DNA from: Peristeroidobacter soli
GTDB lineage: Bacteria > Pseudomonadota > Gammaproteobacteria > Steroidobacterales > Steroidobacteraceae
NCBI RefSeq assembly: GCF_004138485.1
Contig: NZ_RYEV01000004.1
Coordinates: 163,718-195,717 of the forward strand
Reading direction: 5' to 3'
Length of the DNA stretch: 32,000 nucleotides
Position numbers and translations under genes: made by a program. The notes below the pieces were generated by a model. That model was not told the DNA's origin. It saw only the letters and a list, made by a program, of their open reading frames with translations, and did no database searches. Below are positions 19,945-29,598 of this stretch, piece after piece; positions within the stretch are counted from its first letter, which is position 1, and every line of letters begins with the position of its first letter.

Positions 19945-20036
19945 GGAGAGATGGCCGAGTGGTCGAAGGCGCTGGACTGGAATTCCAGTAACATCCTCAC
20001 AGGTGTTCCAGGGTTCGAATCCCTGTCTCTCCGCCA
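19945..20036 (+). tRNA. tRNA-Ser (anticodon GGA), long variable arm, encoded CCA
   Basis: Acceptor GGAGAGA/TCTCTCC. Anticodon stem CTGGA/TCCAG with loop CTGGAAT. T-arm GTTCGAATCC. 3' end ...G-CCA at 20034-20036. Confidence 0.95.
19975..20036 (+). repeat. Left copy of the 62-bp direct repeat (attL-like; equals the 3' part of tRNA-Ser)
   Basis: Identical base for base to 25305-25366 (GACTGGAATTCCAGTAACATCCTCACAGGTGTTCCAGGGTTCGAATCCCTGTCTCTCCGCCA). Confidence 0.9.
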
Positions 20037-25304: not shown

Positions 25305-25366
25305 GACTGGAATTCCAGTAACATCCTCACAGGTGTTCCAGGGTTCGAATCCCTGTCTCTCCGCCA
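25305..25366 (+). repeat. Right copy of the 62-bp direct repeat (attR-like partial tRNA-Ser)
   Basis: Exact copy of 19975-20036. It lacks the tRNA 5' half, so it is not a functional tRNA. Confidence 0.9.
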
Positions 25367-25395
25367 GATCCCCCCCTCGTGCCGGCGCACGCCTC

Positions 25396-28300
25396 TCAAT
25401 ACTCCTTTTTGAATTGAGGGTGCACCCAGCGAAACTCCTGCCGCTTCGAGAGCACCCGAACCAGGCCGCCGTAGTTCGCCGCCGGGTCCACTCGCCTCAG
25501 CAGGGCATGGAACTCTCTCAAGCCGGCGCCATCCGCCACGACGACGGCGCCGGGACCTTGCAACCAACGCTCGCTCTCGGCGGCCGTCTCATCTAGGAGC
25601 TCTCCGGCACCGAGCGTCGCGTCGATCACCTCCTTGGAGAAATCGAGCTGATGCTCGAGCTCCTTGTACCGCGCCTCCTCGATGAGCAGCGGCGCGCCGG
25701 AAACCGCCACGGGCAGAACAAGCCTCAGCGCGGTATTCATCACCTTCAAATAAGGCGCGACCGTTTTGAACCAGGCTCGGTCCAGCTCGATCTCATACAC
25801 CCCGACGCGCTCGTCGCCGCCCAGGAAATGGGTCGGCAGGCGCGAATGTTCGCACCATAGGGTGATTCTGAATTTCGCGGAGAGCCACTGCCGCGGATGA
25901 AACTTGCTTCGCTCGACGGGCGCCACGCTGATCAGACGCGGTCCGTTGACGGCCTCATCGGTCAAAGAGCGAACGATGGCGGCATAGCAACTGTCGGCGC
26001 GACTGAGCAGCTCGCGCTGCCCCGCCGTCAGCTCCGACACTCGAGCGATGAGCGCACCGTGATGCGCGGTGAGCAGTTGCCGGATGTCACGCAGCTCCTG
26101 AACGATGCGCGCGCCTTGTAAATCAGCCGGCACCGGCGCGGCCGGAAGCGCATTCCGAAGCAAATGGTCGATCTGCTGCCACATGCCGCACGTCGGACAG
26201 GGAAACTCGGAGCGCCCTCCGCGCTTGCTCGCCAGCAGTGGATCCACGCGAAACAGACCGGTGCCCGCCGCGCCCCGACCGCACGGATGAACGCATGGGA
26301 CCATGACTTCGCACTCCAGTCCGGTCCAGTAGCTCTCCACCAGATATTTCACCTCACTGGTGAGCATCGCAAGCAAGCGCTCGGGGTAAGCCGCGCGCAC
26401 CGTGATGCGAACGTTCGAATCGACGTACTCGAGCAACGCCCGGCCGTTGTAGCTGTCATCGACCACCAGTCCGCGCTGCCAGTGCACGCTGTGAGCGAAG
26501 TTCACACGCCCCAGCGAGTACTTATGCAGACGCACGATCAATTGATAAAACAGCCCCTCGGCCAGTGCCGGAGTCCCTTTGCCGTCGACGATTCTGCAGA
26601 TCTGCTGCTGCTGCTGATCCCCGCTCTGGAGCGAGGCGTCGGGCCAGACCTGCTGCAGATCGACCATCGGCCTGACATCGGGAACGAGCTGAGCGATGAG
26701 GCTCGTGTAAGCAAGCGGGCGCGCGTCGATGACCGCGTGCGACACGTGACTGGCCGCCTGCAATTTCACCTGCTGGCTGAAACTCAGACTATCGATCGGC
26801 TCACCCGCGAGCACGACCTTGTAAGAGATGTCGAATCGTTCCATGAGCCGCAGAAACAATGGATGCAGATCGGGCGCATATCGGACTGCCTCGGGCCGCC
26901 GCGGATCGTTCCAGAGTTGACTCAGGCGCGTGAAGCTCACCAGGCCCCGGCTGTCCCGCGTGACCTTGTCGTCGAGCACGAAACTGATCGCGGTGGCGAG
27001 CCAATCCGGCTTGAGAATGACGAGATCGCGCAGCGCCAGATCGTGTTCGTAGTGAATCAAGTGGCCGAGCCGATGTGAGATTGCGAGGAACAGCGCGATC
27101 TCCTCGTCGCTCATCGCGAAGCCACGACAAATCTTCCGGACTGTCTCGACACTCAGGTAAGGCGCGCCCCGATGCAACAGTCGCTGACGGGCTCCGCGCC
27201 ATTTGAGCGGTGCGACCCGTCGGACATCCGGTAACTCGAGCGCCGCACGGCCAATGGCCTCTCTGAGCTCCGGGACACCGCGACGATGCCGCTGGGAGTC
27301 GGGCTTGTTCTCGACATGAAAGAAATCGAGCACGGTGTCGCGCCCGAACAGATCCCACAACTCCTGTCGGTCGATATCGGGCTGCCGTTCATCCGGGCCA
27401 CCGTGCGTGCCCACCACGAAGATTTTCGCGGCGGGCGCACGATGCAAGATCAGGCGAATCCACTCCTTCACCAGATTCTGCTGTGCCCCCTCGCGCGGTT
27501 TCCAGACCACCAGGTAAATCGCAGGCGCGGAGAAGAACAATTGATGCGTGGGCCGATAGACGCGCTGCCCGCCGAAATCCCAGCAGTTCAGCGACAGCCC
27601 CGGCGCCCCCGGTGCGCTGATTTTCATCGGCTGAACCTGGATGCCGTGCGTCGAGGAGTGTTCCTTCCACGGCCGCTCGCACAGCGCATCCAGCAGACAC
27701 GTCTTGCCCACCTCGCCTTCGCCGACCAGGATGAGCTTCGCCTCGAACAGCGGCGCGTGTTCCAGCTTCTGCGCCTTCAGGTACGTCTTGAGCGACGGGA
27801 AACCCAGTTCGATCGCGGCTCGCAACTCGTAGGACAGCGGATTCTTCCCGCTCTCCAGATAGGAGAGATTGCACTCAGCCAACGACGGCGGCAGCGTGAC
27901 GAGGTGGTTGCGATCGACCCAGAGGCTCTGCAGGCCCGTATTGCCGATCGAGTCCGGCAGGTTCATCAGCTCGTTCTCGGAGAGTCGCAACTCCCGCAGG
28001 TTCCTGAGAGCGCCAATGGCATCGGGCAACGACCGCAGCTTGTTGCGATGAAGAATCAAGACTTCCAGAGCGCGACACCGTGTCAGCTCCGCCGGCAATT
28101 CCGTCAGCGCATTGTTGTGAGCAAATAGCTCCCGAAGCGAGCGCCACTCACTGCAGTAGCCCGGCAGACTCTGCAGACGATTGTTCGAGATCAACAGCGC
28201 TCTGAGCGACGCCATCCCGCGCAGAGCATCGCCCATGCGCTCGATCCCACAACTGGTCAGATTCAGATACTCCAACTGCGACAACAGCCGCAACGACTCC

Positions 28301-28599
28301 GGCAGCGTCGGCAGATGAGCGCTCGCGAGGCTCAGCCGTTTCAAGGTTTTCAGTTGATAAAGCGACTCCGGCAGCGCGAGCAAACGCGAGCCGTCGGCAG
28401 CGGGCTCGAGCACCAGCTCGGTGGCGCCGCCGGCGCGCGCCGCTTCGATCTTGGCGGCAGCCTTGACGTAGGCTGCGTTGAGCGTATACGGGGGCGGCCC
28501 CTTGCCGCGATCTGTCATTCTCACGATCGTTCTTCCATCCCCTGTGTGAGCCCCGAAGAGCGCCGGGGCGAATGGCCTCTTCCAGGTAGACCGTCGCAT
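25396..28599 (-). CDS. Prokaryotic ROCO protein: LRR - Roc GTPase - COR - Cys-knuckle - unassigned C-terminal domain
   Basis: About 9-10 LRRs (LxxLxLxxNxLxxLP). Roc P-loop ILVGEGEVGKT, G3 WDFGGQ and an LRRK-like G4 VVGTHGGPD. COR-like HRLGHLIHYEHDLALRDLVILKPDWLATAISFVLD. The start is either the ATG at 28599 or the ATG at 28518 (MTDRGKG...). Confidence 0.85.
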   Translation of the reverse strand: MRRSTWKRPFAPALFGAHTGDGRTIVRMTDRGKGPPPYTLNAAYVKAAAKIEAARAGGATELVLEPAADGSRLLALPESLYQLKTLKRLSLASAHLPTLPESLRLLSQLEYLNLTSCGIERMGDALRGMASLRALLISNNRLQSLPGYCSEWRSLRELFAHNNALTELPAELTRCRALEVLILHRNKLRSLPDAIGALRNLRELRLSENELMNLPDSIGNTGLQSLWVDRNHLVTLPPSLAECNLSYLESGKNPLSYELRAAIELGFPSLKTYLKAQKLEHAPLFEAKLILVGEGEVGKTCLLDALCERPWKEHSSTHGIQVQPMKISAPGAPGLSLNCWDFGGQRVYRPTHQLFFSAPAIYLVVWKPREGAQQNLVKEWIRLILHRAPAAKIFVVGTHGGPDERQPDIDRQELWDLFGRDTVLDFFHVENKPDSQRHRRGVPELREAIGRAALELPDVRRVAPLKWRGARQRLLHRGAPYLSVETVRKICRGFAMSDEEIALFLAISHRLGHLIHYEHDLALRDLVILKPDWLATAISFVLDDKVTRDSRGLVSFTRLSQLWNDPRRPEAVRYAPDLHPLFLRLMERFDISYKVVLAGEPIDSLSFSQQVKLQAASHVSHAVIDARPLAYTSLIAQLVPDVRPMVDLQQVWPDASLQSGDQQQQQICRIVDGKGTPALAEGLFYQLIVRLHKYSLGRVNFAHSVHWQRGLVVDDSYNGRALLEYVDSNVRITVRAAYPERLLAMLTSEVKYLVESYWTGLECEVMVPCVHPCGRGAAGTGLFRVDPLLASKRGGRSEFPCPTCGMWQQIDHLLRNALPAAPVPADLQGARIVQELRDIRQLLTAHHGALIARVSELTAGQRELLSRADSCYAAIVRSLTDEAVNGPRLISVAPVERSKFHPRQWLSAKFRITLWCEHSRLPTHFLGGDERVGVYEIELDRAWFKTVAPYLKVMNTALRLVLPVAVSGAPLLIEEARYKELEHQLDFSKEVIDATLGAGELLDETAAESERWLQGPGAVVVADGAGLREFHALLRRVDPAANYGGLVRVLSKRQEFRWVHPQFKKEY

Positions 28600-28632
28600 T
28601 CTGAGTCATGAGCCCTGAAGAGAGGTGTCGGA

Positions 28633-29598
28633 TCAGCGCGGCTCCTCCACACCATGGCCCGCGGCACGCAGGCTGGCCACGACACCCTTGCCCCGTGAGA
28701 CCACGTGGATGGGTAACACCACCAGCGTCGTCTCATTGCGATTCAGCGCCCGTTCGAGCGCGCTGAGCAGCTTGTTCTCCGCCTCCAGCTGCAGCTGCCC
28801 CACTTGCTGCTGACTGAGAAAGGGCCAGCTGTACGCCAACGATTGAGCGTACGAAGCATCCGCTTCCACCAACGTCCGCAACACCTCCATGTCGCCCCGG
28901 GCCCAGGCATTCGCGCGAGCGCGCGCCTGTGTCATGTCGATTTCCAAACGATCCATCGTCTCGACCAGATAGTTGACGGCGTTCTGGCGAGACAGCCGCG
29001 AGCTGTTCTTGTCCGGTGTCACCGGCCCCATCTCATATTGCAGCCCGCGAATGGGCACCGCATGCGCGCCCGCGACCTGATAGATCCTGCGCCACACGTC
29101 ATCGCCGTAGCTGAGCCCGATGCGCTCATATGCTCGCGACCGAAGCAGCAGGGCCGCCGCCGTCGGCAATAGTTTCTCCGTCTCGGGATCCTCGCCGATG
29201 TACTCGTCCCGCAACGTTCGCCACCGCGCATACACCTTGCGAGGCAAGACATCTTTGAGTCTGCTGCCTTGAGACTGATAGGGCTGCACCTGCTTCACTC
29301 GCAACGAAGCCGAGTACGGTCCCAGCACTTCGTTCGACGCCGCGATCACTTCTTCCACCTGCTTCGATCGCCACACCATTCCTCGGGGCGTCGGAACATA
29401 TGTTCCGAGAATCCACAATGTGTGCGAGCCCTTCGTCACTTTCCAGAGCCCTGGTCCCGGCTGCTCGCCGAGCACCAGCACTTCTTCCGGCACGCCCACG
29501 GGAGTGCTTTCCTCCGACGCGCATGCATCCCATGCCACTGCAAAAAGCAGCCGGCAGAACCAGGCACAGCCCACGCCGATGTTTCTGATCTTTTCCAT
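28633..29598 (-). CDS. Secreted TraB/GumN-family protein
   Basis: Signal peptide, LWKVTKGSHTLWILGT N-terminal block, and C-terminal ALERALNRNETTLVVLPIHVVSRGKGVVASLRAAGHGV block typical of the family. The usual His after the GT block reads Tyr here. Confidence 0.7.
   Translation of the reverse strand: MEKIRNIGVGCAWFCRLLFAVAWDACASEESTPVGVPEEVLVLGEQPGPGLWKVTKGSHTLWILGTYVPTPRGMVWRSKQVEEVIAASNEVLGPYSASLRVKQVQPYQSQGSRLKDVLPRKVYARWRTLRDEYIGEDPETEKLLPTAAALLLRSRAYERIGLSYGDDVWRRIYQVAGAHAVPIRGLQYEMGPVTPDKNSSRLSRQNAVNYLVETMDRLEIDMTQARARANAWARGDMEVLRTLVEADASYAQSLAYSWPFLSQQQVGQLQLEAENKLLSALERALNRNETTLVVLPIHVVSRGKGVVASLRAAGHGVEEPR

Follow-up and report, generated by a model that had tools for sequence, protein, structure and literature searches.

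We analyzed a 32,000-nt stretch of the Peristeroidobacter soli genome (contig NZ_RYEV01000004.1, positions 163,718 to 195,717 of the forward strand; hereafter the window) and found that a ROCO gene on its minus strand encodes, behind the Roc GTPase and COR domains, a C-terminal tail whose core is a conserved domain with neither a name nor a recognized fold in the databases searched. With somewhat better than even confidence, we read this tail as a self-contained output (effector) domain that is gated by the switch preceding it.

The gene is one uninterrupted open reading frame (ORF; 25396..28599, minus strand) of 1067 aa from its first ATG. It encodes an intact LRR-Roc-COR protein, in which leucine-rich repeats (LRR) are followed by Roc, COR-A and COR-B, and is thus a member of the ROCO family. 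The database gene call begins at M28 (28518) and gives 1040 aa, and an identical 1040-aa product is present in the protein collection (P0002). Residues 1-55, which include the segment before M28 (window 28519-28599), are not conserved among homologues. The initial annotation, made from the DNA letters alone, had singled out positions 25399-26301; on the minus strand these are indeed residues 767-1067 of the 1067-aa ORF, and every string that it quoted was found (VPCVHPCGRG at 767, FPCPTCGMW at 799, IVQELRD at 832, WCEHSRLP at 915 and YGGLVRV at 1043). Residues 810-1067 were used for a word-indexed search, which gave 248 proteins, and homologue counts out of 120 refer throughout to the best 120 of these 248. 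Structural features were taken from AlphaFold2 (AF2) models and their predicted local distance difference test scores (pLDDT). The layout of the protein, in which the extent of COR-B was identical in a whole-genome search, was as follows.

27775..28434, minus strand: leucine-rich repeats, residues about 56-275 (Pfam LRR_8, LRR_4, LRR_14).
27403..27738, minus strand: Roc GTPase, residues 288-399 (Pfam Roc, E 2.5e-20).
26815..27210, minus strand: COR-A, residues 464-595 (Pfam COR-A, E 4.7e-28).
26155..26568, minus strand: COR-B, residues 678-815 (Pfam COR-B, E 2.9e-24, profile positions 12-144 of 145).
26179..26313, minus strand: Cys-braced C-terminal hairpin of COR-B, residues 763-807 (conserved Cys among 120 homologues).
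25969..26154, minus strand: variable helical linker, residues 816-877 (AF2 helices, identity 0.26).
25399..25968, minus strand: conserved tail core of ~190 aa, residues 878-1067 (AF2, conservation, hhalign).
25846..25857, minus strand: W915-C916-E917-H918 motif at the end of strand 2 (C916 and E917 invariant).
25696..25779, minus strand: long helix 941-968 (AF2 core residues 70-97).
25531..25611, minus strand: acidic variable loop, residues 997-1023, predicted disordered (low pLDDT, identity 0.19).
25420..25428, minus strand: W1058-V-H1060 at the end of the last strand (at 1060, clade A has His and clade B has Cys; clades as defined below).

The tail is widespread. The best 120 of the 248 proteins shared 41-52% identity across the whole tail, and nearly all of them were LRR-Roc-COR proteins. 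A HMMER scan of 1.84 billion cluster representatives (50% identity) gave 587 matches at E ≤1e-3 and 240 at E ≤1e-10. In a pattern scan that took one genome per species, 304 loci were identified, mostly in Chloroflexota, with others in Cyanobacteria (Microcoleus, Nostoc, Nodularia), Chlorobi, Acidobacteriota, Verrucomicrobiota, Myxococcales, Thiotrichales and more. Retained in hundreds of homologues, the tail is not the poorly conserved appendage that the initial annotation had allowed for. Identity to the window protein was 0.32 in the LRR, 0.66 in Roc, 0.60 in COR-A, 0.73 in COR-B, 0.57 in the four-Cys hairpin or "knuckle", 0.26 in the linker, 0.55 in the tail core, 0.19 in the acidic loop and 0.64 at the tail end, the C-terminal motif, which had looked conserved in the initial annotation, being strongly conserved. 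Because of these regional identities, we conclude that the tail evolves in the manner of the protein's catalytic core and unlike either a sensor or a disordered appendage. It is the LRR that is the fast-evolving part of the protein, with a column entropy of 1.89 bits versus 0.6-0.9 bits for Roc-COR.

We searched for a known domain in the tail by profile, sequence and structure. The tail had no match in Pfam, either as a single sequence or when 30 family members were each scanned alone, and none in NCBIfam, PADLOC or PHROGs. Comparison with PDB sequences by phmmer and by family profile found nothing, the best row being a proteasome subunit coiled coil at E 0.067. Foldseek searches of both AF2 models against the PDB, and of the first model against BFVD, returned nothing below E 0.13 (best 0.13-0.7), with template modeling (TM) scores ≤0.3; rows for an estrogen receptor, ThyX, a homing endonuclease and v-Bcl-2 fell in this range (E 0.13 or worse, TM ≤0.3) and were treated as noise. 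The confident profile or structure match that would have spoken against the initial annotation did not appear in Pfam, NCBIfam, PADLOC, PHROGs, PDB sequences or Foldseek (PDB, BFVD). According to a published survey, at least 24 effector-type domains occupy the post-COR position in prokaryotic AP-GTPase (Roc)-COR proteins (PMC8195603). Its source table lists PKN92930.1 as 'LRR-repeats+AP-GTPase+COR', with nothing after COR. That protein (CVU44_12935, 1044 aa; our P0109) is a member of this tail family, and the tail domain went unrecognized in the 2021 catalogue. We considered the DUF4404 label of the same paper as a name for this tail and rejected it, as it marks another paralogue with a different C-terminus.

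The tail also occurs behind a different switch. It followed COR-B in 9/9 long or mid-length representatives; among 10 short representatives, nine were COR-B-tail fragments and one (P0241, 372 aa) consisted of a phospho-receiver (REC) domain, a linker and the tail core. When P0241 was aligned with the family profile by hhalign, core residues 11-195 were matched with 99.2% probability (E 1.5e-19). Starting from P0241, we recovered at least 15 clusters of 336-366 aa that share its REC-tail layout and that the family hidden Markov model scored at E 1e-15 to 1e-22 (the proteins with REC and tail core are P0241, P0272-P0276, P0278-P0285 and P0287). In two unrelated intact neighborhoods (L083-L085 and L086-L087), each REC-tail gene comes 4-24 nt after a gene for a GAF-GAF-HATPase_c-REC hybrid histidine kinase; a third example, in which the kinase is fragmented, is weaker. 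In response regulators, the output is the domain placed behind the REC receiver. Since the same core follows REC beside hybrid kinases, the reading of the tail as an output module gains independent support. The window protein itself has no REC, the fusion being a feature of its relatives. The kinase and REC-tail genes form two-gene operons at L083 5962-9053 and L086 5834-9029, with a regulator of ~350 aa, and the operons at L083 and L084 have transposases, a GmrSD_N fragment and an integrase around them.

These response regulators also bear on a reading in which the tail has no effector activity and is a regulatory or oligomerization module, an extra dimer or autoinhibition device that stabilizes one state of the switch. 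There is a precedent in LRRK2, whose C-terminal elements stabilize its catalytic core. The tail core does come right after the COR-B dimerization element, by way of a helical linker, and its conservation parallels that of Roc-COR; moreover, family members that bear a TIR domain already have an N-terminal effector, and the Pfam and Foldseek searches gave no enzyme-like match. However, REC-tail proteins in kinase operons consist of receiver, linker and tail only, so that the tail is either their output or they have none, and the invariant Cys-Glu and Asp described below would be unusual for a purely structural interface. We regard this regulatory role as improbable.

The N-termini of the nine long or mid-length representatives differed, being LRR, AAA_35-TIR-LRR, nSTAND5...LRR or none. 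Architectures such as TIR-Roc-COR-tail and AAA_35-TIR-LRR-Roc-COR-tail could be understood if the tail were an input, a sensor or ligand-binding domain, with the N-terminal LRR scaffold or TIR as outputs, in the manner of effector-NTPase-sensor STAND proteins. A metal or small-ligand site would be plausible in such a sensor, and one further locus has the tail at the far C-terminus, the usual place of a STAND sensor: at L089 5959-8245, an NB-ARC piece (316 aa) is followed directly by a TPR-tail gene (414 aa), the two probably being one STAND-TPR-tail gene that a frameshift or a faulty assembly has split. The surroundings include a ROCO gene, an AAA_5 gene and a PemK toxin. A slow-evolving tail and a fast-evolving LRR are nonetheless the reverse of what immune sensors show, the place after REC is that of an output, and TIR was found in just 3/120 listed relatives. 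We consider a sensor tail quite improbable and continue to favor a switch-gated output.

Several of the supporting loci stem from fragmented metagenome assemblies. Four candidate stand-alone tails were rejected as pieces of broken or 5'-truncated ROCO genes, and at L019, L022, L055 and L090-L092 metagenome assemblies split ROCO genes into false stand-alone tails, some of them labeled 'internalin A'. In tail-less ROCO paralogues that neighbor tail-bearing genes, this position is taken by other C-terminal ends, in keeping with what PMC8195603 describes for the protein class. At L029 3209-13538 (Chloroflexi bacterium HGW-Chloroflexi-6), three ROCO paralogues lie in a row: a 769-aa tail-less ROCO, a member of the tail family and a ROCO with a DUF4404-type end. 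A NACHT gene is also listed within this row (PMC8195603). The cluster looks like a diversifying paralogue array, and ROCO paralogues with differing C-termini were clustered with a NACHT gene in some Chloroflexota.

Structure prediction describes the tail core as an alpha/beta domain. The second AF2 model, which covered residues 872-1067 and used a 53-sequence alignment built from family loci, had a pLDDT of 81.3 and a predicted TM score of 0.79. It starts with three strands (core-numbered 19-23, 36-45 and 63-69) and continues with two long helices, the first at 70-97 and the second from 104 on; after a disordered acidic loop (128-152, or 999-1023 in protein numbering) come a helix, two short strands (176-179 and 185-188) and a last helix. 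The linker before the core (residues 816-877) forms three helices with pLDDT 66-76, and a linker of similar length joins REC to the core in REC-tail proteins; the helical stretch expected after the knuckle corresponds to helices at 829-878, modeled with moderate confidence. The acidic segment 997-1023, also anticipated, is variable (identity 0.19), has a median net charge of -3 and is predicted to be disordered (pLDDT <50).

The hydrophobic run noticed at the outset, LRLVLPVAVSG, is real and forms the second half of the first long helix (941-968), with a conserved Pro963. It raises the alternative of a latent membrane-active effector, in which helix 956-974 would be released and would insert into the inner membrane, causing depolarization and abortive infection. 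Residues 956-974 are the most hydrophobic 19-mer of the protein (Kyte-Doolittle 1.49), a property that is family-wide (median 1.48), the mid-helix proline and small residues are conserved, and amphipathic helices flank the segment in the AF2 model. Yet the peak lies below the customary 1.6 for a membrane span, so that the segment does not qualify as transmembrane on the Kyte-Doolittle scale, and the run contains an Arg. In the AF2 model it is part of a long helix within the confidently predicted globular core (pLDDT about 88-93) of a compact domain, and Foldseek gave no pore-former, the best such rows having E >2.5 and TM about 0.2. The invariant polar residues lie elsewhere, so the conserved feature would be a site and not this helix. 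We judge a membrane-active tail quite improbable. Of the two functions that had been proposed for the tail, effector or membrane targeting, the first has gained from the REC fusions and the second is left with a helix below threshold.

The conserved residues of the core point instead to a site. Across 104 divergent representatives, P887, R888, L914, C916, E917, W943, D1038, L1046 and W1058 were invariant or nearly so. Among 291 full-core sequences we distinguished clade A (n=195), which includes the window protein, and clade B (n=92), which comprises the actinobacterial ROCOs and all REC-tail proteins. The residues at selected positions (number of sequences) were as follows.

Position 886: G in clade A (193), C in clade B (78).
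Position 916: C in clade A (195), C in clade B (92).
Position 917: E in clade A (195), E in clade B (92).
Position 918: H in clade A (184), H in clade B (66).
Position 1038: D in clade A (190), D in clade B (88).
Position 1060: H in clade A (195), C in clade B (92).
Position 1063: F or Y in clade A, H in clade B (86).

C916 and E917 were thus present in 287/287 sequences of the two clades, and positions 886, 1060 and 1063 switch jointly, from G/H/F in clade A to C/C/H in clade B. Because His and Cys are exchanged at 1060 and clade B has two further ligand-type residues (886 and 1063), we infer a candidate metal site. In the predicted structure, position 886 falls just before strand 1, 916 at the C-terminal end of strand 2 and 1060 at the end of the last strand, an order of elements that is compatible with the candidate ligand positions lying together. 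Our best guess from these patterns is a metal-assisted enzymatic or ligand site formed by C916, E917, H918, D1038 and H1060, which we favor over a transmembrane anchor. The initial annotation had seen no catalytic signature of a nuclease, TIR, SIR2, protease or kinase, and nothing of a recognized kind emerged here; the invariant C916-E917, D1038 and the His/Cys switch at 1060 do soften that statement. A Cys-His protease dyad was rejected, as there is no invariant His and position 1060 swaps to Cys. Nucleic-acid binding is disfavored by the roughly neutral charge of the core.

How might such a domain be controlled? The fast-evolving LRR would sense a ligand, the nucleotide cycle of Roc-COR would alter the dimer or monomer state at COR-B, the helical linker would relay this change to the tail, shifting its pairing or exposure, and the tail would then act. 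The same logic may apply to REC-tail proteins, with REC dimerizing upon phosphorylation. The pairing state of REC domains changes with phosphorylation. In the Roco protein of Chlorobaculum tepidum (CtRoco), pairing changes with nucleotide state (PMC5714945, PMC11052575), and the two together are the basis for proposing gating by dimerization. Since COR-B and REC both switch pairing and are followed by helical linkers of similar length, induced pairing or release would be the simplest mechanism common to both. A stronger version, which we put forward only tentatively, is that the tail has a new fold and acts as a new kind of effector, a metal-dependent enzyme or cell-killing module that is activated by induced pairing and wired to the Roc-COR GTPase, to REC and perhaps to STAND ATPases. 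By analogy with predictions for this class of proteins, the biological role is most likely that of a conflict or defense switch resembling those of nucleotide-binding, leucine-rich-repeat (NLR) proteins; it may also be plain signaling.

Several points count against this overall reading. At 52 non-redundant loci, most of the nearest neighbors are housekeeping genes and no defense family recurs, and we know of no family member with an established activity, partner or phenotype. The proposed metal-site pattern tracks a single clade split, and phylogeny alone could yield it; clade A, to which the window protein belongs, retains only three candidate ligands. A TIR-Roc-COR-tail protein would have two effectors and no obvious sensor, an arrangement that better suits a sensor or regulatory tail, and the NB-ARC/TPR-tail case derives from a fragmented assembly.

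We also examined the cysteine knuckle, which had been placed after COR and likened to a zinc ribbon. Its cysteines (C769-x3-C773 and C801-x2-C804, plus C763) are conserved and not a product of chance, but the location was wrong: all four Cys of the pairs lie inside the Pfam COR-B match (678-815), and the spacer between the pairs is 22 residues, versus the 24 claimed. All 120 of the tail-bearing homologues keep C763, C769, C801 and C804, and 92 of the 120 have C773; where four residues are deleted at that point, a Cys occurs a little further along. Clade-B (actinobacterial) ROCOs have four equivalent Cys with wider spacing (VPC...C.G...C..C). The tail-less ROCO paralogues that lie beside tail-bearing ones in metagenome-assembled genomes of Chloroflexota lack the Cys pairs, and their COR-B hairpin aligns with the knuckle residue for residue (VPI..P...P..Y..LL.....G........V.V..LLSG versus VPC..PC...G.F.V..L.....PC..C..WQ.ID.LL.NA). 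REC-tail proteins, which have no COR-B, also lack the knuckle, and no zinc-ribbon profile matched the segment in Pfam, where COR-B alone covers it. Because the knuckle lies within the COR-B match and aligns with the Cys-free hairpin of the paralogues, we take it to be a Cys-braced form of the ordinary COR-B end, outside the extension, and not a separate zinc-ribbon domain. It is specific to ROCOs bearing this tail, and it is probably a structural zinc site.

In the Roc domain, both the P-loop (GEGEVGKT) and switch II (WDFGGQ) are intact. The G4 motif reads THGGP (residues 397-401, window 27397-27411), as it does in 80% or more of the 100 family members aligned, and the guanine-specifying Asp of the canonical G4 (N/TKxD) is absent family-wide. 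Without this Asp, nucleotide specificity or affinity may differ from that of other Roc domains.

The P. soli genome (9.37 Mb) contains one copy of the tail and one COR-B. A protein-profile search found the tail in none of 40 relatives, 24 of them of the same genus, and window DNA 25400-28600 had no match in 30 congeners. In the same comparison with congeners, the tRNA-Ser gene (19945-20036), the attachment (att) repeat near 25337-25372 and a TraB/GumN gene (28633-29505) were shared. Because the ROCO gene has no match in the relatives and congeners searched while its flanks are shared, we consider it strain-specific. A low-GC island (GC 0.53-0.57) with an AbiEi/AbiEii pair lies between the tRNA-Ser(GGA) gene and a repeat of the 3' end portion of this gene; the ROCO gene adjoins the right end of the island and starts 24 nt past the right repeat. 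The TraB/PrgY/GumN-family gene (about 28633-29598; Pfam E 9.8e-22) lies directly upstream of the ROCO gene on the same strand and has 78-82% DNA identity in two congeners. Since this gene is common to congeners and the ROCO gene is not, their pairing is probably accidental. Clustering of 592 neighbor ORFs from 79 loci revealed no conserved partner gene, only genus-level synteny, and in a Pfam tally of 78 nearest neighbors no family occurred more than twice. As there is no conserved neighbor gene, we regard the ROCO-tail protein as self-contained.

For the Parkinson's disease protein LRRK2, structural models have come mainly from bacterial Roco proteins. The present data define a large ROCO subfamily whose members have in common one conserved, unnamed domain after COR. 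Its shared use as a response-regulator output, together with C916, E917, D1038 and H1060, makes its activity approachable by experiment, and REC-tail proteins, at about 350 aa and with a kinase of their own, may offer an easier route than a 1000-aa ROCO protein. Should the tail prove to be an immune effector, the bacterial NLR-like toolkit would gain a new module; should it be a new effector fold, it would be the first biochemical output assigned to a large group of bacterial relatives of LRRK2.

Among known systems, the window protein most resembles in layout the AP-GTPase (Roc)-COR 'counter-invader' proteins (PMC8195603; Kaur, Iyer, Burroughs and Aravind 2021), which have the same order of a fast-evolving N-terminal LRR, Roc, COR and a variable C-terminal slot. 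In both, some genomes contain clustered paralogues with differing C-termini, and there is a bias to filamentous or multicellular phyla. The tail, however, is none of the slot domains described (TIR, DrHyd, caspase, trypsin, FGS, GT4, EADs, DUF4404, TM+TM), so that the layout fits but the slot is not filled by a recognized effector or adaptor domain, and the same domain also serves REC proteins.

CtRoco (PDB 6HLU, 8R4B) likewise consists of LRR-Roc-COR and a C-terminal region, and its GTP-driven dimer-monomer cycle is the likely switch here too. That region, of about 150 residues, has unknown structure and function (PMC11052575); it had no similarity to the window tail or to the tail of a family member from Chlorobaculum, and the COR-B ends of CtRoco and the window protein were also without detectable sequence similarity. 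The tail described here is longer, is ordered in the model and is preceded by a Cys-braced hairpin.

The Roc-COR tandem is shared with LRRK2 and DAPK1, and in LRRK2 the output, a kinase, follows COR. The module after COR in the window protein is not a kinase, has no known fold and lacks WD40 repeats, and the kinase of DAPK1 is N-terminal. Finally, REC-tail proteins resemble response regulators with non-DNA-binding outputs (e.g. REC-GGDEF), in which REC, a helical linker and a C-terminal output are encoded beside the cognate (hybrid) kinase. They differ in that the output is this unnamed domain, which in the window protein is joined to a GTPase switch and not to a phospho-receiver.

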